A DNA stretch of 64,000 nt from an uncultured Clostridia bacterium (GTDB taxonomy: Bacteria > Bacillota > Clostridia > TANB77 > UBA1234), in assembly GCA_947588905.1 (NCBI GenBank), contig CANQBB010000001.1, positions 6,789-70,788 of the forward strand, written 5' to 3'. The notes under the pieces are model-generated. The model was not told where the DNA came from and did no database searches. It saw nothing but the letters and a program-made list of their open reading frames with translations. How positions within the stretch are numbered: the first letter of the stretch is position 1; every line of letters starts with the position of its first letter. Of this stretch, positions 8,338 through 27,746 are shown in pieces. Both the position numbers and the translations under genes were made by a program.

Positions 8338-8349
8338 CTTTATAACCTC

Positions 8350-11290: not shown

Positions 11291-13303
11291 TTAAAATTTA
11301 AATGAATCAATTTCTTCTGTTGTTTCCATGCTCCATGATTTAATCATTTTACTTGAAACAGTATAATATTTATCATCTATATAAATTATACGTTTCACAT
11401 TATCATTTTTATCATGAGATAATTTACCTTTTAAATTAAAACCATTTTCTATGCTAAAATCATAAACTAAAGCTCCATTGAAAATTACATCTCCATACAT
11501 TGGTGTTCCGTCATTATATTTTCCAGCATCTTCAGTAACTGTAGCAGGAAATGCTATTATACCTTTTTCTACATCTATCAATAATGCTTTATGATTATAT
11601 AATAGTTCTGAGTAACTTCCTCTTGCTCCAATTTTAATTGTGTGTATTTCTTTTGGATTTCTAAAATCTGAAACATCAAATATTGACATTTTAAGTCCAT
11701 TTGAATAAGCAACAACTTCCATTTCGCCTTCCCAATTTAGATAAGATTTTTCTACTGAATCTTCTCCAAAGCCAAGTATATATTTATCTGATAAAGGATG
11801 TAAATAACTGCTATATCCAGGTATTTTTAGCTCTCCTAAAACTTCTGGTTTTTTAGGATTACTTAAATCAATTACAAATAAAGGATCTACTGTTTTATAT
11901 GTTACAACATAAGCTTTATCTCCCATAAATCTTGTAGAGTATATCCTTTCTCCACTAGCTAGTCCTTCTAATTTTCCAATTTTATTTAAGCTTTCATCTA
12001 ATACATAAATATTATTTCCACTCTCGCCATCTGTAGTTGTTATTCTAAAATATCCATCATATTCTCCCATAGAAAATTGATTTAATAAACTACCTGGAAC
12101 TTTTCCAGTTGCAATATATTTAATGTTTCCATCTTCAATTTTAAATTTATGAATACTAGTATTTATTTCATAATTAGATGGTTCATAGCTAATCATAACA
12201 CCGCCAATTGCTTCTTCGCCACTAATTGTTGGTCCTATATATTTAGATACTGTTTTAGTAACATATAAATTTTCTGTTGAACAATAAATCTCGTTTCCAG
12301 CTCCTAAGTATGAATTGATGTTTACATCGCTTTTCATATCATCCAAGTTAAATGATGTAATAATCATATAATTACATTCAGAATCTTCTGCAAAATTAGC
12401 AAAACATCTTACTTTAGAAATTGGTAATTCTAAATAATCTCCACTAATGTTTGAGTCTTTATATATTGGCAAAACATTATTTTCATCAAAATCATAAAAA
12501 GAAATATATTTATTAGTTACAAGATATATACTACTTCCTATTTTTCTAGAAGAAACAATATTTCCTTCTGTTTCAACTTTTCTTAATAGTTCATAAGAAT
12601 TTATATCATAAATTAGCACATTAGTAATATTAGTATAAACTTCATAATTAAATTTATCACTATTTAATGTTTTTTGATTAATCATACTACTTCCTACTAC
12701 AATAATATATTTATCATCCAAATATAATTCTCTGCCATAAAAATCTTCTTCAAAATGAATTTCTTTCACTAAATTGATTTTATCTTCTTTATCTTCAAAA
12801 ATATATAAAATACGTTTTGACTGGTTTAAATAATAAATATATTTACCATTTGTTTTTATAATATCTGATTCATCGACATTTTCTTCTTGAATATTCGTTT
12901 TTGAATATTGTTTATTTTCCGCACCAGAAAAGTCGCTTTCCGGTGCCTTCATTACACTATTAATTGTTGCTGAATCTTCCGCTATAACTGCTTCATCAAA
13001 ATCAAAATAGTTGCCCTGTATATTATTATATTTTTCAGCAGTATCTTTTAAAACTTGTATAAGCTCTTCTTTTGAGTTAAATGCAATTAAATTTTCTTCT
13101 GCTTTCTCATCTTCAGTTTCGACAGTATCATTTTCCATTATCAAAAAATTATCACTATTTTTGTGCATAACCTTATTTCCTACAAGGACAATAGCACAGA
13201 TACATATTGCCATTGTTATAGATGAAATAATTTGCAATCTTTGATGTTTGTATTTTTTAGCTTTTTCTAAAATACTTTGCACTCTTTCATCATTATTCTT
13301 CAT
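11291..13303 (-). CDS. Putative anti-sigma factor: short cytoplasmic N-terminus, one TM helix, and an extracellular beta-propeller-like domain
   Basis: Overlaps the upstream ECF sigma gene by 11 bp. TM helix SSITMAICICAIVLVG. The roughly 600-aa ectodomain has repetitive beta-strand blocks. GGAGGG RBS. Confidence 0.45.
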   Translation of the reverse strand: MKNNDERVQSILEKAKKYKHQRLQIISSITMAICICAIVLVGNKVMHKNSDNFLIMENDTVETEDEKAEENLIAFNSKEELIQVLKDTAEKYNNIQGNYFDFDEAVIAEDSATINSVMKAPESDFSGAENKQYSKTNIQEENVDESDIIKTNGKYIYYLNQSKRILYIFEDKEDKINLVKEIHFEEDFYGRELYLDDKYIIVVGSSMINQKTLNSDKFNYEVYTNITNVLIYDINSYELLRKVETEGNIVSSRKIGSSIYLVTNKYISFYDFDENNVLPIYKDSNISGDYLELPISKVRCFANFAEDSECNYMIITSFNLDDMKSDVNINSYLGAGNEIYCSTENLYVTKTVSKYIGPTISGEEAIGGVMISYEPSNYEINTSIHKFKIEDGNIKYIATGKVPGSLLNQFSMGEYDGYFRITTTDGESGNNIYVLDESLNKIGKLEGLASGERIYSTRFMGDKAYVVTYKTVDPLFVIDLSNPKKPEVLGELKIPGYSSYLHPLSDKYILGFGEDSVEKSYLNWEGEMEVVAYSNGLKMSIFDVSDFRNPKEIHTIKIGARGSYSELLYNHKALLIDVEKGIIAFPATVTEDAGKYNDGTPMYGDVIFNGALVYDFSIENGFNLKGKLSHDKNDNVKRIIYIDDKYYTVSSKMIKSWSMETTEEIDSFKF

Positions 13304-13832
13304 AAGAGAATCCCTCCTTTTCTAAAACTTCTTTAAGAGAGTTTCTTGCTCTATATGCTAAATTTTTAATTTGTTTATTACTTTTTTTCATTACTTTGCC
13401 TATCTCTTCATAAGACATACCTTCAAAATATAACAAATGAATTACAGTCGCATAATCATCTTTAATCTTTTTCATGGCATCTCTTATATGTCTATTTTTA
13501 TCTGTTTTAATAATTAAATCTTCTAGCTTTTCTGTATCTTCAATTTCAGTCTCTAAAGATACAAACACTTTCTCTCTTTTTAAAGCATTAAGTGCTTTAT
13601 TTCTCCCTATTTTAAATAGATATGTTTTAAAAGATGAATCTCCTCTAAAGAAATGCTTATGTACAATCAATTCCATAAATGTATCTTCCATAAGATCTTC
13701 AGCTAAAGTAATGTTTTTTACAAAACCATTGATAAAATACATTAGATTATTTCCATACATATCTACTATTTCATTTAAACCACTCTTATCGCCATCAAGG
13801 AAACGGCGGTAGCTACTTGCACCGTTATCCAT
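13293..13832 (-). CDS. ECF-type sigma-70 family RNA polymerase sigma factor
   Basis: Region 2 (DLMEDTFMELIVHKHFFRGDSSFKTYLFKIGRNKALNALKRE) and region 4 (SYEEIGKVMKKSNKQIKNLAYRARNSLK). 179 aa. AGGAGG RBS. Confidence 0.75.
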   Translation of the reverse strand: MDNGASSYRRFLDGDKSGLNEIVDMYGNNLMYFINGFVKNITLAEDLMEDTFMELIVHKHFFRGDSSFKTYLFKIGRNKALNALKREKVFVSLETEIEDTEKLEDLIIKTDKNRHIRDAMKKIKDDYATVIHLLYFEGMSYEEIGKVMKKSNKQIKNLAYRARNSLKEVLEKEGFSYEE

Positions 13833-13976
13833 AATTGCCTCCTTTCCTTTAGAAGAATATTCTAAAAATTAGACAATCGAAAGACCTCAAAGTCTCATTT
13901 ATAATCATATAATTTGCAATTATTCTAGTTTTCTCGGGCGATTACTAATCGCCCCTACAGGTTTGAGATAAAAATA

Positions 13977-14012
13977 AAAACTCTAGCAAACCTTGATTTT
14001 GCTAGAGTTTCC
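13977..14012 (-). terminator. Rho-independent terminator downstream of tRNA-Gly (aaactctagcaaa ... tttgctagagttt)
   Basis: 13-bp perfect inverted repeat plus a T-run. A near-identical element follows tRNA-Arg at 43016-43050. Confidence 0.5.
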
Positions 14013-14025
14013 TTTAATTTCAATA

Positions 14026-14101
14026 TGGAGCGGGAAACGGGGCTCAAACCCGCGACCTTCGCCTTGGCAAGGCGACGCTCTATCAACTGAGCTATTCCCG
14101 C
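14026..14101 (-). tRNA. tRNA-Gly (anticodon GCC)
   Basis: The reverse complement gives GCGGGAATAGCTCAGTTGATAGAGCGTCGCCTTGCCAAGGCGAAGGTCGCGGGTTTGAGCCCCGTTTCCCGCTCCA. Cloverleaf with anticodon loop TTGCCAA. CCA is encoded. Confidence 0.85.
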
Positions 14102-14317
14102 ATGAACAGTTATTATATTACAATAAAAATCTCAAATAGTCAATACTTATAGCAAATTTTTTTGGTAAAGCATAGATTCATCAAAAAATTATGGCATAAA
14201 ATTGTTGAAGAATTAGGCTTTTAAGTATAAAATTAAATTATAGATAATTACTTAATAAAGCAATAACAGGAGAATGTACAGTTGATTTTTATTACAAAAC
14301 ATATTGGAGATGATAGC

Positions 14318-15616
14318 ATGAAAATTAGTTGTAAGTCTTGTGGTGCAAATCTAAAATTTATTCCAAGCAAACAAATTGCTTGTTGTGAACATTGCGGAAA
14401 TACATATAAACCAGAAGAAATTGAATATGATGACAATATATTTGATAATTATAAAGAATATACTTGTAGTTCATGTGGAGCTAAATTGATTTCATCTGAA
14501 AAGACTGGTATTACTAGTTGTGTATATTGTCAAGGAAAAGAATTTGTAGTAGGAAAAATAAATAAAGATTATATTTTAACAGGTATTATTCCTTTTAGAC
14601 TAGATAAAGAACAGTTTATCAAAAATTATAAAGAGCAAATAGAAAAATTAGATAATGTTAAAAATGATTTTAAGGAAAGTTTAAAAAAAGCTAAAATTCA
14701 AGGAATGTATGTGCCTTATTCTTTTGCTAATAGTTTTTATAGAAAGCAATATGGCGAAGTACTTTTTACTTTATTGGAAGAAATTATACCTTATAATTTC
14801 GAAGATGTGAAAGACTTTAATCCTATATACTTGGATGGCCTAATGGCAGATACAATAGCAGTTAAAAAAGAGGAAAATTTTATAAAAACAAATGATAGCT
14901 CGTTTTATTGGGTACCAGTATGGGTAGCAGAAATAGAATACAAAAATGATATTTATTATATAGTTGCAAATGGGCAAACTTGGGAATTAGCAGGAATGTA
15001 TAAATCTACTGTAAAGAATTTTTTTCTCACTCAAAAGCAAGTAACATTTCAAGAAAAATTATCTTCTATTCATGCAAGAGAATCAATAAAAAGACAGAAA
15101 ATTAAAGAAATAAATAAAAATGCTTTAAAAAATTTAGATACACTGTCAAGTAATGAAGTGTTAAAAATAGAAAGAGAAAAAGAAAAAGAAAGATTGAAAT
15201 ATTTATGTATGAAAGAAGAAGCAGAAAATGCTAAGAAAAAAAATATATACTTATGTCTTAGATGGTTATTTTTTATATTATATATACTAGCACTTCTTGT
15301 ATTTTTTTTATCAAAGCCGGAAGACGAAAATATTCCTGGTTTTATTCTTATTGCTACTTTTGTGTATTTATTATTAAATGCTCTTTTTACATTTCATAAA
15401 GAAAATGAAGATAATACGTATTACGAAAAATTTTTAAGAGCAAATAATGAAATAAAAAATAATGAATATGAAGAAATGAGTAGAGCAGAAAATTCAGATA
15501 TTATCGATAAAATACTACAATTGCCAGAAGATAAAGTATATGAAAATGAAAGAAGTATATATCTTTTTACTAAAAAATATTCTTGGAAAGATAAAAATAA
15601 TAGTATGAAGTCATAA
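14318..15616 (+). CDS. Double zinc-ribbon protein (two CxxC...CxxC pairs), K/E-rich coiled-coil middle, two C-terminal TM helices; function unknown
   Basis: The ATG at 14318 is preceded by a GGAGA RBS, whereas the ORF-track start at 14282 is TTG. Motifs CKSCG..CCEHCG and CSSCG..CVYCQG. TM segments near residues 320-360. Terminator hairpin at 15627-15652. Confidence 0.55.
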   Translation: MKISCKSCGANLKFIPSKQIACCEHCGNTYKPEEIEYDDNIFDNYKEYTCSSCGAKLISSEKTGITSCVYCQGKEFVVGKINKDYILTGIIPFRLDKEQFIKNYKEQIEKLDNVKNDFKESLKKAKIQGMYVPYSFANSFYRKQYGEVLFTLLEEIIPYNFEDVKDFNPIYLDGLMADTIAVKKEENFIKTNDSSFYWVPVWVAEIEYKNDIYYIVANGQTWELAGMYKSTVKNFFLTQKQVTFQEKLSSIHARESIKRQKIKEINKNALKNLDTLSSNEVLKIEREKEKERLKYLCMKEEAENAKKKNIYLCLRWLFFILYILALLVFFLSKPEDENIPGFILIATFVYLLLNALFTFHKENEDNTYYEKFLRANNEIKNNEYEEMSRAENSDIIDKILQLPEDKVYENERSIYLFTKKYSWKDKNNSMKS

Positions 15617-15626
15617 GAAAATAAAA

Positions 15627-15652
15627 AACAGTATCGAAATACTGTTTTTTTG
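15627..15652 (+). terminator. Rho-independent terminator (aacagtatcgaaatactgtt plus a T-run)
   Basis: Perfect 8-bp stem and a T7 run immediately after the stop codon at 15616. Confidence 0.55.
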
Positions 15653-15725
15653 TTTTGTGGGTTACTAATTAATTTTTTTCGAAATTAATCTCCTATCAAA
15701 TTTTCTAATATTTAACTTTTTAGTA

Positions 15726-16097
15726 TTAGCCATTTAGTTCTTTTAAAGCTTTTGAAAATCTTACTATATCTGAAGGAAGCCATATCATAACAATTAAGCC
15801 AATAAAATCTACGCTAGCTATACCAAAAAAAGATAATACCAAAAGTATTAACATATAAATTTCAAATAACCAAGCTGCACTTATTCCATATCTTTTTCTT
15901 TTTGTTATCCCTAGTACCATACCAAAAAGTAAAGATAGTAGTGCTACATATAATACAAAATTAATTGGGTCTAATAATGTTGATATATTTATGAAAGCAA
16001 TTATTATTTCAATGACTAAATAAAAAAATCCTATTCCAACTATATTATTACCATATTTTTTTACTCTCTCTTCTACTGTTAAATTTTTCTTACTCAT
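15726..16097 (-). CDS. Small integral membrane protein (123 aa, 3-4 TM helices)
   Basis: ATG with GGGGGA RBS. Hydrophobic throughout. Confidence 0.4.
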   Translation of the reverse strand: MSKKNLTVEERVKKYGNNIVGIGFFYLVIEIIIAFINISTLLDPINFVLYVALLSLLFGMVLGITKRKRYGISAAWLFEIYMLILLVLSFFGIASVDFIGLIVMIWLPSDIVRFSKALKELNG

Positions 16098-16565
16098 AGT
16101 AAATTTTCCCCCTTAACTTATATAATATAAGTTGATTATATATATAATACATTAAATTTTCAATATTACTCAAATAAAATACTTAATAATAAAATACTCC
16201 TAAATTATTAAACAAAATGTTCAAATGATTTAGGAGTTTTTTTATAGCACATATGAATTAGCCTAGTCTATATTTTTCTAAATTAGAAAGTTGCCAATTT
16301 GTACAAATCTGAGCAGAATGATTTTTTGCAGTTTCAGCCTTGATAGTAGCTTCTATTTTGCCAATTTCTTTTTCATCCATCACACCCAATTTTGTCTTAT
16401 TATATAAAAGCGAAGTAGTTTTGATTCGTACTTTTCTAATTGCCATTTTCTTTCATAACCTCCTCAACAATTGTTTTCGAGATAGGAAACATATACCAAC
16501 ATCGCTACTATAACATAGAATACTTGTTTTTTCAAGCATTTCTTAGTAAGTATAACTAGCAAAAC

Positions 16566-16608
16566 AAAAAACAGTATCTTCGATACTGCTTTTTATTTTG
16601 GCTGGGCT
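16566..16608. repeat. Left copy of a 43-bp direct repeat: terminator hairpin plus the last 11 nt of tRNA-Gln
   Basis: aaaaaacagtatcttcgatactgCtttttattttggctgggct matches 19209-19251 in 42 of 43 positions. Confidence 0.6.
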
Positions 16609-16708
16609 AAATTATTTTTTTCTCTTAAAATTCGTCCATATCAATACTTCTAACATTTTTCTTTTTTGTAACTATAGTTCCAGAAATATTTATTCTTTCG
16701 ACTTTCTA

Positions 16709-16900
16709 TTATTTATGTGATTTACGCAATTCGATTTCATAAAGAAGCATTGTATTTATTTTATGTAATAGATTAAAATCTAACTTACTTAAATCTTTAA
16801 ATTTTTTATTTTTAATCTGATTATATATTTTAAAAAATTCATCTTTCTCCATTTTAACAATATAACTCCTTTTATTAAAAATCAATTTCATTTGAATCAT
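16709..16900 (-). CDS. Small protein (63 aa), translationally coupled downstream of the 456-aa gene
   Basis: ORF starts 2 nt after the upstream stop. K-rich. No recognised domain. Confidence 0.3.
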   Translation of the reverse strand: MIQMKLIFNKRSYIVKMEKDEFFKIYNQIKNKKFKDLSKLDFNLLHKINTMLLYEIELRKSHK

Positions 16901-16902
16901 TT

Positions 16903-18273
16903 TTATCTGGATTCTTTTTCATCTTTTGTAGTATCTTTAGATTCAACTAACCCTTGAAAACTTTCTACATTTTGTTCAATTCCCTCAATCAATTGTTCTT
17001 TAGAAAACAAAACTTGTTCTTTTTGACTTATAACATCCAAACAATTTGTATCAAATATTGCCAATGAAGGTAACTCCAGTCCACAATCAATATATGATTT
17101 ATTTATCATTCCACTAAAATATGAAGTAATATTATATGAAATTCTATTCATTCTATCTTCCACACTTGAAACTTCTCCTTTAATTTTCTCTTCACTATAC
17201 AATTTTAAAAATTCCATTCCTGATAGTTCATAAGATGCTCTTTGAGGCCAACTTTCTTCAGTAAAAATAGTAAGATCATCAATTAATATGTTATTTTGTC
17301 TTACTTTATCAACAAATTCAGAAAAATCTTTAAGTAACTCATTTTTCATAAGCGAGAAAAATATTTCATTTTCAAATACATCTCTTATATTTTTGGATTC
17401 ATCATATAAAGATAATAATTTTTCTTTTTCCTCATTAGATGCTTCAACATGTTCTAAAATATGCATAACACTTTCTTTTGAGGAATACTTTTTTAAATTT
17501 ATATATGGTAAAGATTTAATATGTGGATACATTCTTGAGGCATCTATATTTTTATCTGAACAATGATAAAGTTTCATTAATATAGGATTTAACATTCGTA
17601 CATCGATAGGATTTAATTTGCCTTCTTCCAAATTATCTGAACCACACAAGCACTCTGTAATTAATTTTGTAAATTTTTCATATTCGTGCAGTTGATTTTC
17701 CCAAACTTGCGAATTGTGAGGATTCAAATAATAGAAAGATCCATATTCTTGAAATTTTTGAGCAATATTTGAAATAGTAGGAAAAGCATATGGATTAAAA
17801 TTGTTATTAGCAAAAAGTTCAGGGTAAAATAATTTAAAAATCGATTCAAGTCCATCATCAACATCTAAAATTACACCCTTCGCATCTGGCATATTAAATT
17901 TCTTTTTTACTTCTTCTAATAATTTATCTCTTCCTTCTTTTTCTGAGCTTTCCCACTTCATTTCCATTTCATGTTTAACAGGTTCAAACACACTCATAAT
18001 TTCATTTGGTTTTACAATTATAATATCTTTTAATTTTGCAGAAATAACATTCGTAGTTCCATCTTCTTTACAAAATTTTGAAATTAAGTCTGGTGCTCTT
18101 TCTACTAAAAACCTATGCCATCCACAAGTCATTCCATCTGAACTTTCAGGTAAACTAAACCACATTGCATTCTTTGGCTTAAAAAATATATGTCCTTTAT
18201 ATTGATATTCACAATTTTCAAATTCTTTAGTAGATAAACAAACGAATTCTGTTTTATCATCAATTCTTGGCAT
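16903..18273 (-). CDS. Uncharacterised 456-aa cytoplasmic protein; sole sizeable cargo of the tRNA-Gln-associated islet
   Basis: ATG with GGAGG RBS. No TM helix or signal peptide. Cys/His-containing N-terminus (CLSTKEFENCEY...CGWHRF). I recognise no family. Confidence 0.55.
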   Translation of the reverse strand: MPRIDDKTEFVCLSTKEFENCEYQYKGHIFFKPKNAMWFSLPESSDGMTCGWHRFLVERAPDLISKFCKEDGTTNVISAKLKDIIIVKPNEIMSVFEPVKHEMEMKWESSEKEGRDKLLEEVKKKFNMPDAKGVILDVDDGLESIFKLFYPELFANNNFNPYAFPTISNIAQKFQEYGSFYYLNPHNSQVWENQLHEYEKFTKLITECLCGSDNLEEGKLNPIDVRMLNPILMKLYHCSDKNIDASRMYPHIKSLPYINLKKYSSKESVMHILEHVEASNEEKEKLLSLYDESKNIRDVFENEIFFSLMKNELLKDFSEFVDKVRQNNILIDDLTIFTEESWPQRASYELSGMEFLKLYSEEKIKGEVSSVEDRMNRISYNITSYFSGMINKSYIDCGLELPSLAIFDTNCLDVISQKEQVLFSKEQLIEGIEQNVESFQGLVESKDTTKDEKESR

Positions 18274-18559
18274 ATACTACCTCCTATTATATTTTTAATT
18301 ATATAATAAAGCTTACTTGTAAATTTTATTATTTAAAAAATGTATATGTAAAACTACAATTTTTTTCAATTTTTCTCTTTTATTCTATATAATAATAAAT
18401 TTGTTTGATGTGTAAGCAAATGTTTAGGTATCAAAAAGTTATAAGAAATTATGTATTAACAATAAAACTTAATTTCTTCTATATCATCAATATGATAATA
18501 TTCTTTCCATTTAGTAGTAATTAAAAAATAATGTCTTGCAATTACGTTTAATAATTTAC

Positions 18560-18778
18560 TTAATTCATCTTCTGGTATTCTACTATTTCACTATAGTTGC
18601 CTTCCCATACGGTTACTTTATATGTTGGTAATTGTATTCTAACAGAATCAAATCCATTTTTAGTAGGTCTTTCAAAATGAACATCAATACACTCTGTATC
18701 ATTTTCTATATATACATTTGAAAAAACGACTTCTGTTTCATCTTCATATTTAACATATGGATACATCATTTTTTTCAC
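18560..18778 (-). CDS. Small hypothetical protein (72 aa)
   Basis: ORF only. Lies inside the islet. Confidence 0.25.
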   Translation of the reverse strand: MKKMMYPYVKYEDETEVVFSNVYIENDTECIDVHFERPTKNGFDSVRIQLPTYKVTVWEGNYSEIVEYQKMN

Positions 18779-19085
18779 GCTCCTATCAATAATTTTATTT
18801 ATATTATAACATCTATAGAAGGAAATTACTACTATATTTTTCTTTCAATAACCTAACTATAATGGCAAAAATGAAAAATATGCAATAAATAAGTAAATGA
18901 TATTAAGTGATAAGCGAGTAATTAGTAAGTAACTAAGTTAGTGGTAAACGAGTAATAAGTGAAAAATAATAAGTTTGACGAATATATTGTCGCAAGCCTT
19001 TGATTTTGAATGGTTAGAACAATAATCAAGCTGAATTTGTTTTACATTTGACAAAATAAGCGACTTTCAATTTCTTGAAAGTCGC

Positions 19086-19115
19086 TTGGTTGTTGGCTGG
19101 GCTGGGAGGATTCGC
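19086..19115 (-). repeat. Degenerate third copy of the tRNA-Gln 3' end (ttggctgggctgggaggattcg...), preceded by a hairpin
   Basis: 22 nt identical to the tRNA-Gln 3' end at 19241-19262. Upstream hairpin aagcgactttcaa..ttgaaagtcgctt at 19057-19086. Confidence 0.45.
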
Positions 19116-19208
19116 CCTCCGGGCCGCGTCCTAAAAAAGGTCCACTGGACCTTTTTTGCCTCTCTTCTTTCGGCACGTCCTTTTCGAATCCTCTATTTCT
19201 TGCAAAAT

Positions 19209-19251
19209 AAAAAACAGTATCTTCGATACTGTTTTTTATTTTGGCTGGGCT
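19209..19251. repeat. Right copy of the 43-bp direct repeat (terminator plus tRNA-Gln 3' end)
   Basis: See 16566-16608. Confidence 0.6.
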
Positions 19252-19317
19252 GGGAGGATTCGAACCGCCGAAATGCCAGAGTCAAAGTCTGGTGCCTTAC
19301 CACTTGGCTACAGCCCA
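19242..19317 (-). tRNA. tRNA-Gln (anticodon TTG)
   Basis: The reverse complement gives TGGGCTGTAGCCAAGTGGTAAGGCACCAGACTTTGACTCTGGCATTTCGGCGGTTCGAATCCTCCCAGCCCAGCCA. Anticodon loop CTTTGAC. CCA is encoded. Confidence 0.8.
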
Positions 19318-19330
19318 ATATTTATATACA

Positions 19331-19408
19331 TGGGGTGAAAGATGGGACTCGAACCCACGACCTCCAGGGCCACAACCTGGCGCTCTAACCAACTGAGCTA
19401 CATCCACC
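19331..19408 (-). tRNA. tRNA-His (anticodon GTG) with G-1
   Basis: The reverse complement gives GGTGGATGTAGCTCAGTTGGTTAGAGCGCCAGGTTGTGGCCCTGGAGGTCGTGGGTTCGAGTCCCATCTTTCACCCCA. Anticodon loop TTGTGGC. The extra 5' G pairs with C73. Confidence 0.75.
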
Positions 19409-19594
19409 ATCTTTGTTACATGCAAGTTATATTTTAGCCTATTTTTAGCACATTGTCAAGAAAAATATACCTATCAAAAGAAAAAGTTTTGTGAAAAATA
19501 GTGTAAATGCAAGCAATTAGTGATACAATTATTTAATCATATCATGTATATGAGATATAAAACAAGGTAAATTATAATATAAAAGGAGTCTTAT

Positions 19595-20326
19595 ATGTTA
19601 GAATTTATAAATGTTACTAAACAATTCGATACTGTTACAGCCGTAAAAAATGTGTCTTTTAGCTTAGATGCTAGTAAAGTTCTTGGCATCGTTGGCAGAA
19701 ATGGAGCTGGAAAATCTACTATATTTAGAATGATTTTGAACCTTATAGAACCAACATCTGGTGAAATTAAATTTAATGGTGAAAAAATCAGCAATGATGT
19801 ATTAAATCAATTTGGCTATTTACCTGAAGAAGGTAGCATAATGCCTCAATATACAGTTTTAGATATATGTGAATATTATGGAGCATTAAAACTAATGACT
19901 AAAGATGAGGTATATAATAATTTAACTGCTTGGCTTAATGAATTTAATATTTTAGAATATCTTAATGTTAAAGTAAAAAAGCTTTCTAAAGGGAATAGAC
20001 AAAAAGTACAATTTATTGTATCAGTATTGCATAATCCAGATTTTATTATACTAGATGAACCATTTTCTGGTTTAGATCCTATAAGTGTCGAAGAGCTTGA
20101 GAAAGCAATCTTAAAATTAAAAGAGCAAGGTAAGACAATCATATTTTCTTCTCATATTATGAGTCATGTAGAAAATATTTGTGATGAAATTTTAATGATA
20201 AATAAAGGCGAATCTTTGTTGCAAGGCAATTTAAAAGATATAATTTCAAATTATAAAATAAACGAAAAGCCTGCTAATTCTTTAAATGATATTTTTATAG
20301 ATAAGGTGGGTGAAATTGATGAATAA
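19595..20326 (+). CDS. ABC transporter ATP-binding protein
   Basis: Walker A GRNGAGKST, signature LSKGNRQK, Walker B ILDEP. AAGGAG RBS. Confidence 0.8.
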   Translation: MLEFINVTKQFDTVTAVKNVSFSLDASKVLGIVGRNGAGKSTIFRMILNLIEPTSGEIKFNGEKISNDVLNQFGYLPEEGSIMPQYTVLDICEYYGALKLMTKDEVYNNLTAWLNEFNILEYLNVKVKKLSKGNRQKVQFIVSVLHNPDFIILDEPFSGLDPISVEELEKAILKLKEQGKTIIFSSHIMSHVENICDEILMINKGESLLQGNLKDIISNYKINEKPANSLNDIFIDKVGEIDE

Positions 20327-22514
20327 TGATAAGGTTAAAGAAATAATAAAATTTTCTTTTATTAAAAATATACAAAACAAATGGTTTATTATTTTTAATA
20401 TTTTAACTTTAATTAGTATAGTTCTAATGGTAAATTGGAGTTCTATATCTAATTTATTCAAACCTAAAGATGAATTAAAAGTATTTGATATAGTTTTGAT
20501 AGATAATAGTAATCTAGTTTATGATAGTTTTGTCGAAAAATTTTCTGATGATAAAAATTATAAGCTAACTAAATCTACAGAAAATACTTATACAGCAGAA
20601 AATATACCTGATGATTTAGTTATTTTAGAAGTCACACCTGATGAAGAAAAAATGTTCACCACATCAGTTATTTCAAAAGAAGGTATCGAAACAACAAAAT
20701 ATAATCCTATCAAAGACACTCTTTTAGATGTTAGAAATAAACTATTTGCAGAAAAATATAATGTTACTGATGAAGAATTAGATATATTTCAAAGTGATTT
20801 AGAAATAAATAGAATTATGCTTTCTGTCAATGCAGAAAATTCTACCACGAAAGAATTTATAAAATTATTTTCATCTGCTTTCACTTATATAATTACAGTT
20901 TTTATATTTTCTAAAATGGCAAATGAAATTGCTAGCGAAAAGCAATCGAAATCAACTGAATATATTTTAACAACCGTATCATCAAAAGAATATTTATTTG
21001 CAAAAATATTTAGTAACATCGCTATTTTGCTTGTTCAAGGTCTTTTCTTAATTGTATATTATTATATTGCTGCAATTATTTTTAATTTAATAAATATTGC
21101 TTCAACTGATTTAAGCCTTTCAACTGTAACATTTTCAAGCATATTAAGTAAAGATATTGTATATTATATTTTAGCTTTGATTATTTATAATGTATTAAAT
21201 TTAATATTACTTTGCATTATTCAAGCAACCGTTTCTTCAAAAGTTAATTCAACTACTGAAGCAGGTAATACTGTATCTTTACTCATATTTGTAATATTAC
21301 TTGCATATGTTGCAACTGTTTATATTATAACACCATATACAAAAATGAATTTATGGGTATATATTGTGTCTTGCATCCCAGTATTATCAGCATATTTTGT
21401 ACCAGCCATGATGGTCATTGGTCAGGCTACAATATGGCAAATTATAATATCTTTAGCTATATTGATTGCATCAATACCTATATTATTTCATTATAGTGCT
21501 AAAACATTTAAAAATGGAATTTTAGATTATACTAAAGTCAAAATCAAAAATAAGAAAGAAAAAACTTTAGAAGAACAACAGAAAATATATTTAACAAAAC
21601 GAAAAATGCAAAATGTAGGTTTTGTTATAGGCATTGCAATAATAATTTATTTTGGTTTACAAACAGTTTTAACATTATTGTGTGGAATAGTACTACCAAC
21701 CTTATTTAGCAATTTATCTGAAACAGATATAACTTTAATAATGCAAATTATTTTACAAGTAATCTCATTAGGAGTATCTGCATTTTGGATATTATCTTAT
21801 GTTGAAAATAAAAAAGAAAAACGCAAAAAAGTAAATTTGAAAAATAAAATCTGTATAATTTTAATTGCTTTATTACTAATATTTGGTTTGCAATATTTAC
21901 TTAACTATCTTCTTTATCCTGCCATAGGTTTAGATTATTCTACCACTGATGTATTTGATATAAGTTCAAATTCAAGTTTACTAAGTAAAATTATATTCAT
22001 ATTAGCCATTAGTGTAACACCTGCAATATTCGAAGAATTATTCTTTAGAAAAGCTGTTATATCATTTACAAAACAATATGGAACTACCTTTGCTTTAATC
22101 TTTTCAGCCTTATTATTTGGAATGCTTCATATGAATTTATCACAATTTTTATTTGCTTTCATAATAGGAATTGTTTTTGGAATGATTTACTTGTACACAA
22201 ACGATATAAAAATTACAATGTTTATTCACTTTATAAACAACGGTCTTGCCGCCATTGAATTGATATTACCAGAATCATATGGAATTATAATAGTTCTTAT
22301 ACTATTAGTATGTTTAGTACTAGGACTTGCTTTAGCTCTAATTATGCTATCTAAGAAAAGATATGGAGAAAAGTTCAAAAATATTTGTCTTAAAAAAGTT
22401 TCTTTATCATCTTTTAACTCAAAATATAAATATATATTTACTGATTATACATTTGATATTTCAATGATTTTAGTTGTTCTTATGAGCATACTAACTGAAA
22501 ATATGTTAAGATAA
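20319..22514 (+). CDS. ABC-2-type permease fused to a C-terminal CPBP (CAAX protease / Abi) intramembrane domain
   Basis: The ATG at 20319 follows an AAGGTGGG RBS and overlaps the ATPase stop. The N-terminal permease half has about 6 TM helices. The C-terminal half carries CPBP motifs FEELFFRKAV, FGMLH and HFINN. Confidence 0.6.
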   Translation: MNNDKVKEIIKFSFIKNIQNKWFIIFNILTLISIVLMVNWSSISNLFKPKDELKVFDIVLIDNSNLVYDSFVEKFSDDKNYKLTKSTENTYTAENIPDDLVILEVTPDEEKMFTTSVISKEGIETTKYNPIKDTLLDVRNKLFAEKYNVTDEELDIFQSDLEINRIMLSVNAENSTTKEFIKLFSSAFTYIITVFIFSKMANEIASEKQSKSTEYILTTVSSKEYLFAKIFSNIAILLVQGLFLIVYYYIAAIIFNLINIASTDLSLSTVTFSSILSKDIVYYILALIIYNVLNLILLCIIQATVSSKVNSTTEAGNTVSLLIFVILLAYVATVYIITPYTKMNLWVYIVSCIPVLSAYFVPAMMVIGQATIWQIIISLAILIASIPILFHYSAKTFKNGILDYTKVKIKNKKEKTLEEQQKIYLTKRKMQNVGFVIGIAIIIYFGLQTVLTLLCGIVLPTLFSNLSETDITLIMQIILQVISLGVSAFWILSYVENKKEKRKKVNLKNKICIILIALLLIFGLQYLLNYLLYPAIGLDYSTTDVFDISSNSSLLSKIIFILAISVTPAIFEELFFRKAVISFTKQYGTTFALIFSALLFGMLHMNLSQFLFAFIIGIVFGMIYLYTNDIKITMFIHFINNGLAAIELILPESYGIIIVLILLVCLVLGLALALIMLSKKRYGEKFKNICLKKVSLSSFNSKYKYIFTDYTFDISMILVVLMSILTENMLR

Positions 22515-22563
22515 AAAATACAGCATTAAAATAGCTATGTTAAAACTATTTTAATGCTGTTTC

Positions 22564-23823
22564 TTATATTTCTTTTATAACATCTTCCAATCCTTTAATC
22601 AAATTTTTCCCTGTACTAATATCATTTTGATAATGTTCCATTAAATATGGCTCTATATTATATTTTATTGTCATCTTTATATCTTGATTGGTCATTGGTT
22701 TGCAAAAATAAGAATGCCCTATTTTTGCATTATCTTCTAGATTTTTGTTTATACCCACTATTTCATTTATTACTTTAGTCATAGAATCATTTTTTAAATA
22801 AAATTGTTTAAATTTTTCGTTTTCAAACATTGGTAATATTGTGTAAAAACAAAATCTTCTTCTAAATGCATAATCTTTTTCAAAGCCACTATCAAAATTA
22901 TTCATTGTACCTATTATATAAATATTTTCAGGAACATAAAATCTCTCTCTTGAACATGCTAGTTCTATATAATTTTCTTTTCCTCTTTTATCTAACTCTA
23001 TTAAAGAAAATGCCTCTCCAAAAATTTTAGAAATATTTCCCCTATTTATTTCATCAATAATTACAAAATACTTATTTTCAGGGTCATTTCTAGCCTTATT
23101 ACATATTCTCTTGAAGCAACCTCTTTTATATTTATATATACCTATATCATCAGGTCTATACCCTTCCATAAATTCATCACTAGAGTACGTTTCATGAAAT
23201 TGTACACAAAGCATTTTTTCTTCATCTTTTTGTCCTAAAATAGAATATGCCATTCTTTTAGCAATATATGTTTTACCAACACCTGGTACACCTTGTAATA
23301 TAACATTTTTTCTAGTTAATATTAGAGAGCGAAGTTCATCATAATCTTCTTCTTTAAAGAAAACTTCTTCTAAAAACTTTTCTTTATCATAACTTTCATA
23401 ATATCTATATTGCTTTTGAGGATTTAATTCTCTTATCATGCTATATATTACTTCATATTCTCTTTGAGATAATTTAAATAAAGTTCCTTGAGTATATCTA
23501 AAAACTTCTAAATTTGCTAGTTCTATGTGACGTTCTATATTATATCTACTTACAGTATCAGTAACTCCCTCTACTTTTTCAAACATAACTTTGTTATTAT
23601 TTATTTCTTCAACAACCTTACATAATCCTATAATTTCATTACTTGGTTCCAGTTCATAAGCTATAACTAAAGAATCTTTCTTTATTTCTGCAAAATTTTT
23701 ATATAATGTTCTTGGAGTACCATCTTCATTTAATGCTGTATAATAAAATCTATCTCCTACATCTAAATCTCTAAATCGTATCATTTTAGGGTTTATGCTA
23801 AGCCACCAATAATTATTTATCAT
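22564..23823 (-). CDS. McrB-family AAA+ GTPase with an N-terminal EVE/PUA-like domain; no McrC partner
   Basis: P-loop LQGVPGVGKTYIAKRMA, FHETYSSDEF, DEINRGNISK, GTMNNFDSG, FRRRF. The N-terminal 140 aa (YWWLSINPKMIRF...) is EVE-like. It is flanked by a + strand gene, with a terminator upstream. Confidence 0.65.
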   Translation of the reverse strand: MINNYWWLSINPKMIRFRDLDVGDRFYYTALNEDGTPRTLYKNFAEIKKDSLVIAYELEPSNEIIGLCKVVEEINNNKVMFEKVEGVTDTVSRYNIERHIELANLEVFRYTQGTLFKLSQREYEVIYSMIRELNPQKQYRYYESYDKEKFLEEVFFKEEDYDELRSLILTRKNVILQGVPGVGKTYIAKRMAYSILGQKDEEKMLCVQFHETYSSDEFMEGYRPDDIGIYKYKRGCFKRICNKARNDPENKYFVIIDEINRGNISKIFGEAFSLIELDKRGKENYIELACSRERFYVPENIYIIGTMNNFDSGFEKDYAFRRRFCFYTILPMFENEKFKQFYLKNDSMTKVINEIVGINKNLEDNAKIGHSYFCKPMTNQDIKMTIKYNIEPYLMEHYQNDISTGKNLIKGLEDVIKEI

Positions 23824-23849
23824 ATAAATTCCTTCTTTTCTTTAAGTGG

Positions 23850-23878
23850 ATAATATCACGAAATACTACAATTTTCAA
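23850..23878 (-). promoter_or_regulatory. Sigma-A-type promoter for the McrB-like gene (TTGAAA, 17-bp spacer, TATTAT)
   Basis: Minus-strand reading ttgaaaattgtagtatttcgtgatattat, about 25 bp upstream of the RBS and ATG at 23823. Confidence 0.4.
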
Positions 23879-23891
23879 TGATTTTTAATTC

Positions 23892-23929
23892 AAAAATGAG
23901 GTTGTATTATTTTACAACCTCATTTTTTA
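23892..23929 (-). terminator. Rho-independent terminator (atgaggttgta...tacaacctcat) after the pilin-like gene
   Basis: 11-bp perfect stem and a T-run in the minus direction. It separates the pilin-like gene from the McrB-like gene. Confidence 0.55.
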
Positions 23930-23947
23930 ACTTATTTTATTATCTAA

Positions 23948-24883
23948 TTATTGATTAAAACTAGCTTCATATTTACTAACCCATATTCCAGTCAAATCTA
24001 ATACATTATCTCCAGTACCATATTGGAATGAACTTGGAAGGGTATATGTATCTCCATTAGCACTTGTCGTATCATTAGTTAAATTACTAAAAATTATTTT
24101 TGCACCAGTAGTTCCAACACTTGAAGTTGTATATCTAGGTATCCAAACATATGCACTACCCTCGGTAGTAACTTTTTTACCTACTAATTCTGAAAGTGAT
24201 GCTTTTCTAACTGCAGCATTATCAAATCCTTCAACTGCTAAATCATCTTTAAGCATAACATTTGCCCAAGCCATTTGCTCTTGTGAATAATCATACCAAT
24301 CAGTATCATCTGCACTTGTAACAACCCATTCACTTCCACTTAATTTAACAGGTACCATACCATCACTTAAAACTGGTTTATTAACTTTTTTAGCATCATC
24401 ATATTCAACATCTGATAGCACGTCTTTTCCTCCCCCCATATCTTTCTTTAAGTCATTTAGGGAATAATACACTTTATCTTGATACAATACACCGCTTATA
24501 GATACAACATTACCTTGCTCATAGTTTATAAGATAAGCTGCATTTACATTGTCTAGGCCTAATTGATCAAAATCACTTTCGTTGTCTAATAAATACCAAC
24601 CATCTGCACCAGAATATGTTTGCTTAGTACTTCCAACTCCTACTTCCATTGGTTCGTAGTCTAATCTACCAACATATGCATAAAAATCAGGGTTAATTTT
24701 ATGTACTAATGTCCTATTTACTACAGCATCGATAATTTCATGAACTTCATATGCAGTTTTAGTTTCCATAGCAACATCAGTATTTCTATTTAAACCATAA
24801 TATATTGTTACCGCTGCAAGTATAATAATAACTATTATTGTTATAATTAAAGCAACAATCGTTATACCTTTTTTATTTTCCAT
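23948..24883 (-). CDS. Degenerate type-IV-pilin-like protein (pilin-type N-terminal helix lacking Phe1 and Glu5) with a roughly 270-aa extracellular domain
   Basis: N-terminus MENKKGITIVALIITIIVIIILAAV follows the prepilin pattern KKGFTLVELL..I.I.GILAA, but with F changed to I and E changed to A. AGGAGG RBS. Confidence 0.45.
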   Translation of the reverse strand: MENKKGITIVALIITIIVIIILAAVTIYYGLNRNTDVAMETKTAYEVHEIIDAVVNRTLVHKINPDFYAYVGRLDYEPMEVGVGSTKQTYSGADGWYLLDNESDFDQLGLDNVNAAYLINYEQGNVVSISGVLYQDKVYYSLNDLKKDMGGGKDVLSDVEYDDAKKVNKPVLSDGMVPVKLSGSEWVVTSADDTDWYDYSQEQMAWANVMLKDDLAVEGFDNAAVRKASLSELVGKKVTTEGSAYVWIPRYTTSSVGTTGAKIIFSNLTNDTTSANGDTYTLPSSFQYGTGDNVLDLTGIWVSKYEASFNQ

Positions 24884-24941
24884 ATTATCCTCCTATACTT
24901 ACTATTCTTTAATTGCATTTTACTATAATCATTTTAAAAAA

Positions 24942-26690
24942 TCAATATTTAATGTTAAAATAATCATACTTAATTGCTAAATCATCTAATATTATTTTTT
25001 CTCTATCTGAGCAAGTAGCTATAATTATTTGCCTATTAGTATCCTTTAGGCAAGAAAGTATGTTTTTCAGTCTTACATCATCAAAATAAGCAAAACATTC
25101 ATCTAAAATAATAGGCAATTCTCCCAAATTTTTAGAGATTCCAAATCTAAATCCTAAATAAAATTGATCAATTGTACCAATACTTAATTTACTAACAGGG
25201 ACTAATTCCCCAAGTGAATTTTCTGCTAAGATTCCAGCTTCATTGTTATAATAAATTTTTTCATATCTATTATTTGTTGTTTCTTTTATTGATTGTTTAA
25301 TATTTTCTTCCATTTTGGGAATTACATCTTGTTTTAGTTCTTCATATGCTTCACTTAATTTATCAATAGCAATATTTATAACTTTTCTTCTAGTACTTAG
25401 CACATTCTTTTTTTCTTCAAGAGATGCTAATTGTTCTTCAACTTCTGATAATCTATCTATATTTTCTCTTAAACTTCCCTCTTCTATTTTTATTTTATGT
25501 CCATCCAAAATTAAATCATTCTTCTTTTTTTCTAATCCACTTATTAAAGATTTTAATTCTGATATCTTTCGTTCTATCAATGTTTCTTTTATTCCTTTTT
25601 GAATTAGCTTATCTAATTCTTTTTGTTCTTTTTTATTAACTTCTTCTTTTATAACTGTAAAATCTAAAACATGATTATCTTTTGAATCAATTTTATTACT
25701 ACATTTTAAAATTATAATTGCCAAAATAGCAAATACTATTTCTAAAATAATCCAATAATAATTTTTATAGTAGCACAATATTCCAGCAGTCAAAATTGCA
25801 AATAAAGAAATTATACTTAAAAATATTTTGAATTGTTTTTTTGATTTAGAAATTTTTTCTTGTTTTTCTTTTTCATTCACTTTTAAAGTTAATTCATATG
25901 TTTTTTCTTTTTCATTCAACAAATCGCTATATTTTTCTTTTATTTCTAAGATTTCCTTTATCTCTTCCATATCAGAATTTATCTTTTTTAATTGTTCTTC
26001 TATTCCCTTAGAACTTTCATCTAAAATATCTTTTTTATCTCTATTGTTTAGAAGGTTTAATCTTTGCTGTTTCTTTTCTAATATTTCTCTATCAATTAAA
26101 TTGATTGGCTTATTTTGAGATCTGTCAGTTCCTATCTCATCTAAAACCTTTTTTTGAAGTTTAGTTTTAATCTTCTCAAAAGATATATTTTCTTGACCAC
26201 TTTGAAGTATATTAGAAAGTTTTTGAACTATATTTTTTTGCGATTGCATATCAACAGAAATTTCTTTTTGATTTATAAGCAAGGTATTAACAAATGTTTC
26301 TTCATCAATACCCAAATGAGTCATTCCAAGCTCTACACCTCTTGTTTTATCTTTATTAAAGGTGTTTGTTATATCGTTTCCATTACTGTCATAAACTTTA
26401 CAATTATTTCTATTAAAATCTCTAAAAGCAGTATATGTTTTTCCATCAATTTCATAATCTATTTTTCCGCTAAAATCAATATCTTTCCATGGTTTAAATC
26501 TTTCAAATTCAGAAAATTCATTACCTGCTTTATTTCTATTTATACCATAAAAAATGCATTTAATAAAATTTATAATTGTTGATTTACCAGACTCATTTTC
26601 TCCATATAATAAGTTAAGTCCATTATTAAATTCTATAGTTTTATTTTCTAAATTACCAAAGCCATTGATTTGTATTTTTTTTATAATCAT
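24942..26690 (-). CDS. YhaN-like SbcC/Rad50-family ATPase with a coiled coil interrupted by a two-helix membrane hairpin
   Basis: N-terminal P-loop LLYGENESGKST. Long coiled coil. TM pair FKIFLSIISLFAILTAGILCYY / WIILEIVFAILAIIIL in the middle. C-terminal signature and D-loop region (ILDECFAYFDD). Its start overlaps the yhaO-like stop. Confidence 0.6.
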   Translation of the reverse strand: MIIKKIQINGFGNLENKTIEFNNGLNLLYGENESGKSTIINFIKCIFYGINRNKAGNEFSEFERFKPWKDIDFSGKIDYEIDGKTYTAFRDFNRNNCKVYDSNGNDITNTFNKDKTRGVELGMTHLGIDEETFVNTLLINQKEISVDMQSQKNIVQKLSNILQSGQENISFEKIKTKLQKKVLDEIGTDRSQNKPINLIDREILEKKQQRLNLLNNRDKKDILDESSKGIEEQLKKINSDMEEIKEILEIKEKYSDLLNEKEKTYELTLKVNEKEKQEKISKSKKQFKIFLSIISLFAILTAGILCYYKNYYWIILEIVFAILAIIILKCSNKIDSKDNHVLDFTVIKEEVNKKEQKELDKLIQKGIKETLIERKISELKSLISGLEKKKNDLILDGHKIKIEEGSLRENIDRLSEVEEQLASLEEKKNVLSTRRKVINIAIDKLSEAYEELKQDVIPKMEENIKQSIKETTNNRYEKIYYNNEAGILAENSLGELVPVSKLSIGTIDQFYLGFRFGISKNLGELPIILDECFAYFDDVRLKNILSCLKDTNRQIIIATCSDREKIILDDLAIKYDYFNIKY

Positions 26691-26699
26691 ATAGCACCT

Positions 26700-27746
26700 C
26701 TATTTCATCATTTGATATATTAAATCAACCGTTTTCATTGTTTCTTGCTTTTCTAATTCAGACATATTTTCCATTTCATCCAAAATCTTTTTTGTAAATA
26801 ATCCTTTTAGATTTTTCATTTGCTTTATATTTTCAAAATCATATGGCAATGTTGTACAATCTTTTATTTCACAAATATTTTTATTTTCTTCAGTTATACA
26901 CTCTATCAATTCATCTATATTAAAATTTCTAGTTCCACAAATTTCAATTTTATAAAATTTATTATCTTCAATCTTTAAACTTTCCATTACCTCATGTATG
27001 TTTGAATAATTAGAAATATCTAATTTTATTTTTTCAAATTCTTTATAGTCAAGAGGAACAAATTCTAAATCACATTTTTCCTTCGTTATCTCTCCTTTTA
27101 CGAAACCATGTTTTCCTTCTTCATCAAATCCACAAGATATTAAACTTCCAGGATAAATTATTCTAGAATCGTCAACATTTTTTTCATGTATATGTCCAAG
27201 TGCTACGTAGTCAAATTTATTTAAATCTTTTTCTTTAATGTCATGATACTTTCCATCTGCACCATTTAAAGTGCCATGTGTTACAAGAATATTTATTTTA
27301 TCTTCATTTTCAATTTTTATATTTGCTATTTCATTTGAAGAAAATTCATAATCATTAAATCCAATACCATAAATATCTACATCATCAAAACTAATCATTC
27401 CATATTCACTATTAAAAATAGTTACATTACTTGGCCAATCAAATGTGCTATATGGAGAATTTTTTATAAGTGGATCATGATTTCCTGGTGCAATAAAAAT
27501 ATTAGTATCACTAATCAATCCAAAATTAGAAATAATATATTCAATTGTACTTTTTTCAACATACTTTTGCTCAAATAAATCTCCCGAAATAAACAAAAAC
27601 TCAACTTTTTCTTTTTTTACAAATTGAATAACATCTCTAAATGCTTGCTTTTGTTCTATTCTTCTTTTCTTTATTAGTTCTCTATTTCCTTTAAATGAAA
27701 GCATTGGCATATCAAAATGCACATCGGCTATGTGTACAAACTTCAT
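26700..27746 (-). CDS. YhaO-like SbcD/Mre11-family metallophosphoesterase (nuclease subunit)
   Basis: Motifs MKFVHIADVHFD, GDLFE, GNHD, GHIH. 348 aa. AGGAGGA RBS. Confidence 0.7.
   Translation of the reverse strand: MKFVHIADVHFDMPMLSFKGNRELIKKRRIEQKQAFRDVIQFVKKEKVEFLFISGDLFEQKYVEKSTIEYIISNFGLISDTNIFIAPGNHDPLIKNSPYSTFDWPSNVTIFNSEYGMISFDDVDIYGIGFNDYEFSSNEIANIKIENEDKINILVTHGTLNGADGKYHDIKEKDLNKFDYVALGHIHEKNVDDSRIIYPGSLISCGFDEEGKHGFVKGEITKEKCDLEFVPLDYKEFEKIKLDISNYSNIHEVMESLKIEDNKFYKIEICGTRNFNIDELIECITEENKNICEIKDCTTLPYDFENIKQMKNLKGLFTKKILDEMENMSELEKQETMKTVDLIYQMMK

Follow-up and report, generated by a model that had tools for sequence, protein, structure and literature searches.

The 64,000-nt stretch of an uncultured Clostridia bacterium analyzed here (contig CANQBB010000001.1, positions 6,789 to 70,788; referred to as the window) harbors a 2.6-kb segment, islet B, which is located at the 3' end of a tRNA-Gln gene between two copies of a terminator-containing direct repeat (DR). 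The target gene, tRNA-Gln(ttg) (19242-19317, minus strand), was identified with ARAGORN, and it follows tRNA-His(gtg) (19331-19407, minus strand), the first gene of the tRNA-His/tRNA-Gln operon, for which a promoter-like site is present at 19459-19431. The unique part of islet B (16609-19193, minus strand) measures 2,585 bp, or 2,643 bp together with one repeat copy. It is a mosaic consisting of an operon for a 456-aa and a 47-aa protein (the 456/47 operon), the remnant of a gene pair coding for a 90-aa protein and a DUF4160 protein, a second 22-nt tRNA-Gln end and a 79-nt GC-rich piece, X. On the far side of islet B, a 0.9-kb segment named islet A (15666-16550, minus strand) is delimited by the distal repeat (DR1) and by T1c, a third and degenerate terminator copy. 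Islet A contains a 62-aa open reading frame (ORF; 16258-16446) and the gene of a 123-aa membrane protein (15726-16097), for which a weak PHROG match was obtained.

The terminator repeat and the empty site

A preliminary description of the locus, made from the sequence alone, had reported a 43-bp repeat with one mismatch, the second copy of which includes the 3' end of tRNA-Gln. This 43-nt core was found at 16566-16608 and 19209-19251, the two copies differing by a single C/T mismatch, and a repeat search lengthened it to 58 nt with 91% identity between DR1 (16551-16608) and DR2 (19194-19251). DR2, the attL-like copy, comprises the last 10 nt of tRNA-Gln (19242-19251), the 41-nt palindromic terminator T1a (19203-19243) and a further 9 nt. 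Hence, 10 nt of the repeat are within the tRNA gene, and the remaining 48 of the 58 nt, downstream of it, represent the terminator hairpin. The arms of T1a in DR2 are perfect over 19 bp, with a calculated hairpin energy of -20.8 kcal/mol (z = -10). The tRNA-Gln gene itself stays intact beside the islet (59.8 bits with the Rfam tRNA model), and islet B starts past the repeat, at 19193.

The attR-like copy, DR1, consists of AGCCCAGCCA and the terminator T1b (16560-16600), which probably also ends the 456/47 operon. The two substitutions in DR1 are still G.U pairs in the minus-strand RNA, i.e., in the direction of the 456/47 operon. The T1 hairpin is flanked by A and T tracts on either side and thus corresponds to a bidirectional intrinsic terminator. 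The third copy, T1c (15618-15655), retains one arm without change (18/18) and has a loop shorter by 1 nt; this terminator is common to the convergent gene of a 444-aa protein, and its tRNA-like tail (15656-15665) is doubtful. The 58-nt repeat is not a chance likeness, since it includes 10 nt of GC-rich tRNA sequence inside a genome of 28% GC. The preliminary description had also raised the doubt that the repeat might prove to be a widespread terminator family. Within the window, only the DR1 and DR2 sites matched the T1 hairpin motif, against 0.01 matches expected from shuffled sequences (the motif count over both strands is 4 because the motif is palindromic), and T1 as a genome-wide repeat family was rejected for this 64-kb stretch.

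The protein encoded by the 62-aa ORF just beyond DR1 was looked up in other assemblies, and five contigs of the same species were retrieved from different samples (L029-L033). In one of these, L032 (ERZ27249236), 21 nt of the tRNA-Gln 3' end (CGAATCCTCCCAGCCCAGCCA) are followed by a single T1 copy and then by the 62-aa flank, and islet B is absent. An empty site in related genomes, which the preliminary description had named as the comparison to be sought, thus exists. Over 1,258 aligned bases, L032 and the window showed one base mismatch, at the proximal polymorphic site inside T1, and outside the repeat their sole difference was a 30-nt in-frame deletion in the 123-aa gene, which gives a product of 113 aa. 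The T1 copy of L032 is a hybrid, as its tRNA-proximal polymorphic base is of the DR2 type (AAAAAACAG) and its distal bases are of the DR1 type (TTTTTTGTTTTGCTAGTTATA). Such a hybrid is the sequence expected of an unoccupied site and, equivalently, of recombination between DR1 and DR2 within the exact 23-nt block that they share.

The occupied junction, DR1 together with the islet-side flank, was found in L029, L030, and L031, and the same arrangement was found in L014; these contigs are from other samples. L030 and L031 span the 3' part of the 456-aa gene, the 47-aa gene, DR1 and the 62-aa gene with 99.9-100% identity, and L033 begins distal to DR1 and hence is uninformative on the junction. 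The single repeat copy at the empty site indicates that the 2,643-bp segment is a discrete repeat-bounded unit of insertion or deletion. L032 could represent either the ancestral, never-occupied state or a derivative after loss of the islet, and its sequence fits both. Islet A was present in every same-species contig, including L032, and is probably older than islet B.

Mosaic content of islet B and the 456/47 operon

The 456-aa protein is encoded at 16903-18273 on the minus strand, with an AGGAGG ribosome-binding site and a promoter-like site at 18352-18323, and belongs to an undescribed family. Its small partner had been taken as a 63-aa protein in the preliminary description. The two-gene operon proposed there is retained, with a correction of size: the conserved small ORF codes for 47 aa (16709-16852, minus strand), starts at Met17 of the 63-aa ORF, and shares 70% identity with the corresponding partners in two other contigs (L003 and L010), 30 of the 47 positions being invariant. 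The 456-aa protein is rare. Only four close relatives were found among 5.8 billion clusters, and an exhaustive profile search among 1.8 billion yielded 18 representatives of the family at E <= 0.001. The family core is formed by residues 1-155 and roughly 355-440, separated by a variable helical insert of ~200 aa. The N-terminal domain carries the motifs LS.K.F, KP..GMWFS, SEW, and EKR..LLE, and the C-terminal segment carries FSG and DMPSL..FDT.C. Residues S14, K32, W38, S40, and R115 are invariant within the family. The distant members of the family are chromosomal singletons amid housekeeping genes and are devoid of a small partner.

A closer relative of the operon, a pair coding for 458 aa and 45 aa, was found in four contigs (L010-L012 and L016) directly after a TnpV-like gene and beside genes for a 652-aa Resolvase+Recombinase protein and a Mob_Pre protein. 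This is reminiscent of the Tn4451/Tn4453 family, which are integrative mobilizable elements (IMEs) of Clostridia with the large serine recombinase TnpX, TnpV, and a Mob_Pre relaxase (PMC5704250); the homologue found in this gene context (P0003) is 50% identical to that of the window. L016, from an uncultured Clostridia metagenome-assembled genome, is the only GTDB genome with a relative, the scan of genome contigs having found a single species, that with the Tn4451-like context. A further copy occurs in a sister species known from human gut metagenomes. The copy in the Tn4451-like context and the sister-species copy share 72% identity, and each shares ~50% with that of the window, which implies that the operon has moved horizontally at least once. 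Its occurrence within a Tn4451-like gene set indicates that it travels as cargo. The family is thus rare and resides on three genomic platforms, and it is therefore probably selected for something useful or selfish.

Searches of all islet proteins against Pfam, NCBIfam, PHROGs, and PADLOC returned no usable match; none of the six locus proteins matched a model in PADLOC-DB 2.0 at E <= 0.1, the 47-aa ORF had no family match, and PDB sequence searches with three profiles found none. No match was obtained against phages and plasmids, either by tblastn of the 456-aa and 123-aa proteins or by blastn of the whole locus, and scans of IMG/VR for the 456/47 module and the 90-aa protein detected no relatives. 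An AlphaFold2 (AF2) model of the 456-aa protein built from 4 sequences was too poor to be used (predicted local distance difference test score, pLDDT, 52). The model built from 15 sequences was usable (pLDDT 78.7), and Foldseek comparison of the modeled structure with PDB and BFVD returned nothing significant. A weak ADP-ribosyltransferase-like (ART-like) fold signal was noted for the 456-aa protein. The protein is, as a best guess of low confidence, an enzyme whose NAD-binding core is of an ADP-ribosyltransferase/RES-like type; as a lead only, the fold itself is given slightly better than even chances, and toxin activity is far less probable than the fold.

The protein differs from RES toxins (Xre-RES/ParST/MbcTA) and ART-fold enzymes in the absence of any RES or ART match in Pfam, NCBIfam or PDB sequences and in the splitting of its core by the ~200-aa helical insert. 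It also differs from the Xre-RES/ParST/MbcTA systems in gene arrangement, as its small partner is encoded downstream, is only 47 aa long and not Xre-like, and an antitoxin of the Xre/ParS/MbcA type is absent upstream. The suggestion in the preliminary description that the islet carries a defence or toxin gene thus found no direct support in the PADLOC search or in the weak fold signal. If the ADP-ribosyltransferase-like fold is true, the protein would represent a divergent new branch of the NAD-utilising toxin/effector superfamily; if it is not real, the finding is that of an ordinary decayed islet. The 456/47 operon is rare, mobile and uncharacterised, and as the cargo it is the unusual part of an islet that is otherwise fairly ordinary.

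The segment 18451-18834 (minus strand) is what is left of a mobile gene pair for the 90-aa protein and a DUF4160 protein, as revealed by nucleotide identity to six contigs (L023-L028) in two blocks: 86-88% for 18583-18834 and 80% for 18451-18587, which are separated in those contigs. The two blocks correspond to the first 61 codons of the 90-aa protein, which is widespread (171 clusters), and to the 3'-terminal part of the adjacent DUF4160 gene. About 235 nt are missing between them, and the 72-aa ORF (18560-18778), which had been listed as a gene in the preliminary description, is the resulting deletion fusion and not an intact gene. Elsewhere, the pair adjoins PIF1-helicase, Mob_Pre, and Bro-N genes and, in one case, is located downstream of another tRNA-His/tRNA-Gln pair.

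Closer to the tRNA, islet B contains a second copy of the tRNA-Gln 3' end (19093-19114). Repeat and pattern searches placed this copy, which had been described as degenerate and located at 19086-19108, a few bases away and showed it to be exact (22/22 nt, from the T-loop to CCA+1). Directly downstream of it is the terminator T' (19058-19087, minus strand), with a 13-bp stem. Piece X (19115-19193) is 79 nt long with 54% GC and includes a bidirectional hairpin; one of its ends is formed by the T-loop segment of tRNA-Gln in inverted orientation. Two AGGACG(T/C)G(G)CC boxes are present in X, and the surrounding region has 26-28% GC. The bases upstream of the 22-nt tRNA end that abuts X form a perfect T-arm-like hairpin, and the internal pseudo-copy in X restores a perfect GGAGG/CCTCC stem. 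Searches of Rfam gave nothing credible for X even at a permissive threshold, and exact-pattern searches with X and with the repeat junction gave zero matches in metagenome and viral collections. The possibility that X is a structured RNA was dropped, as its fold was barely better than those of shuffled sequences (z = -1.9). Just upstream of T', an imperfect 23-nt direct repeat (18/23; 18907-18929 and 18941-18963, 34-nt spacing) with the pattern GTG(A/G)TAA(G/A)CGAGTAAT.AGT.A was observed, which could be a protein-binding site of the arm type or iteron-like, or a chance likeness in AT-rich DNA.

Origin of islet B

The arrangement of islet B is comparable to that of cis-mobilizable elements (CIMEs), which, together with tandem accretion at att sites in tRNA genes or gene 3' ends, have been described for the CIMEs related to ICESt1/ICESt3 of Streptococcus thermophilus and the tRNA-Lys arrays of S. 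agalactiae (PMC5704250, section 2.3). Like CIMEs, islet B stands between att-like direct repeats next to the 3' end of the gene it targets, with attL and attR kept and genes for integration and transfer absent. Further similarities are the tandem segments split by repeat copies that degrade away from the target gene, the decayed mobile-element genes, and the presence or absence of the segment according to strain. Unlike in CIMEs, 48 of the 58 nt of the repeat belong to a terminator hairpin, and the islet is only 2.6 kb long. Islet B also resembles the classical tRNA-linked islands and prophages (P4-type, with tyrosine integrases) in its location at a tRNA 3' end, in repeats that include this end, in the intact tRNA, and in an empty site in another strain. 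It differs from them in having no integrase at the tRNA-proximal end or within the 64 kb and in an identity block that extends past the tRNA. In contrast to the Tn4451 family, the window has no large serine recombinase, TnpV or MobV-type relaxase, and the repeats measure 58 bp as against the 2-bp repeats left by elements of the Tn4451 type. As had been noted in the preliminary description, an integrase is lacking: the window has 38 ORFs of 150 aa or more, and a recombinase domain was found in none of them (Pfam; tyrosine and serine recombinase, transposase and relaxase domains), and no integrase, relaxase or type IV secretion system (T4SS) gene was found between DR1 and DR2. The islet does hold the deletion-fused remnant of a gene pair that elsewhere stands next to Mob_Pre and Bro-N genes, and it may derive from an integrative conjugative element (ICE) or an IME; an intact parent ICE or IME with a matching integrase was not found.

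Comparison with the sister species, in which the ABC ATPase and the sigma factor are 76% and 82% identical to those of the window, provided two observations relevant to the origin of the islet. In one sister-species contig (L006), a prophage- or ICE-like element (1-9875), located upstream, abuts CCAGCCCAGCCAA, a 13-nt identity block made up of the last 12 nt of tRNA-Gln and one base. This junction at the extreme 3' end of tRNA-Gln indicates that this end is a used attachment site in the lineage, and the tRNA cut-off is similar to that of DR1 (12 versus 10 nt). Secondly, in the sister species, a different terminator stands after tRNA-His and tRNA-Gln, and immediately beyond it is a homologous operon for 454 aa and 52 aa, with 50% protein identity to that of the window.

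Taking these observations together, it is fairly likely that islet B is a decayed, integrase-less, CIME-like integrative islet at a hotspot formed by the tRNA-Gln 3' end and its terminator. An ancestral element would have recombined there through an attP that shared ~91% identity with the chromosomal junction, formed by T1 and the last 10 nt of tRNA-Gln, and would thereby have duplicated the 58-bp site, leaving DR2 at the tRNA and DR1 at the distal end. The crossover would have occurred within the 23-bp hairpin core CAGTATCGAAGATACTGTTTTTT if both repeat polymorphisms predate the event, and it is plausible that a palindromic hairpin served as the core site of a tyrosine recombinase. As 48 of the 58 repeat bases are terminator sequence downstream of the tRNA, the parent attP must have carried a T1-like hairpin. 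The recombinase would since have been lost from the islet. Since neither the islet nor the window encodes one, present mobility would need a helper integrase acting in trans, for which a tRNA-Gln-targeting prophage or ICE is a candidate, or homologous recombination between the repeats.

Such a history would involve at least two rounds of accretion, giving the order tRNA-Gln – DR2 – islet B – DR1 – islet A – degenerate T1c, with the internal exact 22-nt tRNA end and X as possible relics of a further event. Each terminator copy would be in use: T1a for the tRNA operon, T1b for the 456/47 operon, and T1c for the 123-aa and the convergent 444-aa genes. Islet B would be the youngest segment, still polymorphic among nearly identical strains. 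The repeat copies decay with distance from the tRNA, from a perfect palindrome (DR2) through two substitutions (DR1) to the degenerate T1c, as tandem accretion predicts (PMC5704250, section 2.3). The idea in the preliminary description that insertion was possibly repeated is supported by T1c, which bounds the second 0.9-kb segment, and by the exact tRNA end inside islet B.

A number of observations weigh against this origin. The empty site rests on one metagenome contig of ~2x coverage that starts only 21 nt into the tRNA. A deletion between the repeats, by homologous recombination or slippage, would give an identical empty-site sequence, and the direction and mechanism of the event are for this reason unproven; of the site-specific insertion at the tRNA proposed earlier, insertion is supported by L032, and a site-specific event cannot be separated from homologous recombination by sequence. 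The identity block of tRNA-targeting integrases normally is inside the tRNA gene. The repeat of islet B, with only 10 nt in the tRNA and 48 nt downstream, is atypical for such enzymes. The base composition of the islet is not distinctive (26.1% GC versus 28.3% in the window), and a cognate integrase, a circular junction or attP was not found in any of the collections searched. In the sister species, the module directly follows tRNA-Gln with no comparable repeat, and the module could therefore be old at the locus.

A more far-reaching version of the CIME-like origin is at most tentative. In this version, the 456-aa and 47-aa genes would form a novel module whose ADP-ribosyltransferase/RES-like core is split and which could act as a drug-modifying enzyme, as a defence effector, or as a toxin paired with a small neutralising protein; it would be carried as cargo by unrelated platforms, i.e., tRNA-Gln islets and serine-recombinase IMEs, and the islet would still be mobile through a helper integrase in trans that recognises the terminator hairpin and the tRNA end.

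Among the explanations that dispense with such an origin, the one that fares best, although it is unlikely, involves no site-specific event: the terminator and a few tRNA bases would have been duplicated locally or by homologous exchange and kept as operon terminators, and the empty site would be a RecA-dependent or slippage deletion in one strain. All three terminator copies do stand where termination is needed, and the DR1 hairpin has remained paired in the minus-strand RNA owing to G.U pairs, which hints that terminator function is under selection. The hybrid repeat of L032 is equally expected from a deletion, and the absence of an integrase is in keeping with this explanation. This explanation does not explain why the duplicated unit starts within the tRNA near the position of the sister-species prophage junction (10 versus 12 nt), nor does it explain the mosaic of mobile-element genes between the repeats; the longest exact block common to the repeats, 23 nt, is also short for efficient homologous recombination.

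It is more improbable still that the 456/47 operon is an old, fast-evolving resident of the tRNA-Gln locus with its ortholog in the sister species. Only T1a and X (19115-19241) would then have been inserted later, pushing T' and the earlier tRNA end, now the 22-nt copy, away from the tRNA, and L032 would have lost the block secondarily. The order of tRNA-Gln, terminator, and the 454-aa and 52-aa genes in the sister species, in the same orientation and with no repeats, is in agreement with this, and the 22-nt tRNA end, T' and the genes following them in the window resemble that layout. However, identity between the window protein and its sister-species counterpart is no more than 50%, as against 76-82% for flanking genes, and this counterpart is nearer (72%) to the protein encoded beside Tn4451-like genes in another organism, so that horizontal transfer must have occurred. 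In addition, a separate account would be needed for DR1, which carries 10 nt of the tRNA end on the opposite side of the operon, and foreign DNA, the DUF4160 remnant, separates T' from the operon.

Lastly, L032 could be an assembly artefact, a chimera in which the tRNA side was joined to the 62-aa side via the shared repeat and which would render the repeats uninformative on mobility, in keeping with its ~2x coverage, its start 21 nt into the tRNA and the switch of repeat type inside the exactly shared 23-nt block; such a chimeric assembly is unlikely and this explanation highly improbable, since the occupied arrangement contains none of the 33-mers or 55-mers of L032 that cover both polymorphic sites, so that a chimeric join would be possible only at k=21, at which a de Bruijn graph, judging from how such assemblers work, would branch and not merge, and since the private 30-nt deletion marks L032 as a distinct strain.

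Islet B is of a kind that is already known, a CIME-like decayed tRNA islet, and its atypical feature is the attachment repeat made up mostly of a terminator. It represents a small and clean example of a tRNA-linked hotspot that gathers and loses cassettes. As both alleles are available in nearly identical strains and the repeat is located mostly in a terminator hairpin, recombinase specificity and trans-mobilization are directly testable.

Neighbouring loci and the sister species

The protein encoded by the 444-aa gene that converges on T1c (14282-15616) showed N-terminal CxxC zinc-ribbon-like motifs and C-terminal membrane helices; it could not be assigned to a family, and the related loci that were retrieved lack a homologue. 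In the T-stem of tRNA-Gln, a C.U mismatch (GGCGG/CCTCC) is conserved between the window (19242-19317) and the sister species (L003, 9811-9886). A block of ABC transporter genes (ABC/ABC2) is located between the module and tRNA-Gly in L003; in the window (13293-23823), it is beyond tRNA-His, inverted, and adjoins a McrB-like gene. The gene order around the tRNAs thus differs between the two species, which indicates that the neighbourhood is plastic. A weak 15/18 match to the tRNA end inside a 95-aa ORF of L003 was judged compatible with chance. The element abutting tRNA-Gln in L006 codes for a giant ART-PolyVal/LPD38 protein (>2,400 aa) and for collagen-like, NlpC/P60, DUF6275, and Spo0E-like proteins, and its integrase end is beyond the fetched locus. 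In another low-GC organism of the same sample series (L024, 402-7170), a tRNA-His/tRNA-Gln pair is followed by genes for a 405-aa unknown protein, a Mob_Pre relaxase, the 90-aa protein and Bro-N proteins and then by mutL; this insert is mobile-looking, and no tRNA-end repeat was detected in it.

Beyond the ABC transporter, the window contains genes for a McrB-like AAA_5 protein (22564-23823), a 311-aa protein that is a possible McrC-like partner, and an SbcC-like AAA_23 protein (24942-26690). An SbcD-like metallophosphoesterase (26700-27746) and a T4SS coupling protein (27828-29795) are encoded in the same cluster (22564-29795), which may be a remnant of a defence or conjugative element. A RhuM-family protein (251 aa, 41930-42685) adjoins tRNA-Arg(tct) (43064-43140), and this region may be another small tRNA-associated islet. 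SLH-domain proteins are encoded at 482-1222, 4922-5581, and 31713-34181, and a 3,069-aa ORF at 54725-63934 with DUF285 and leucine-rich repeats (LRR) is likely to encode a surface protein.

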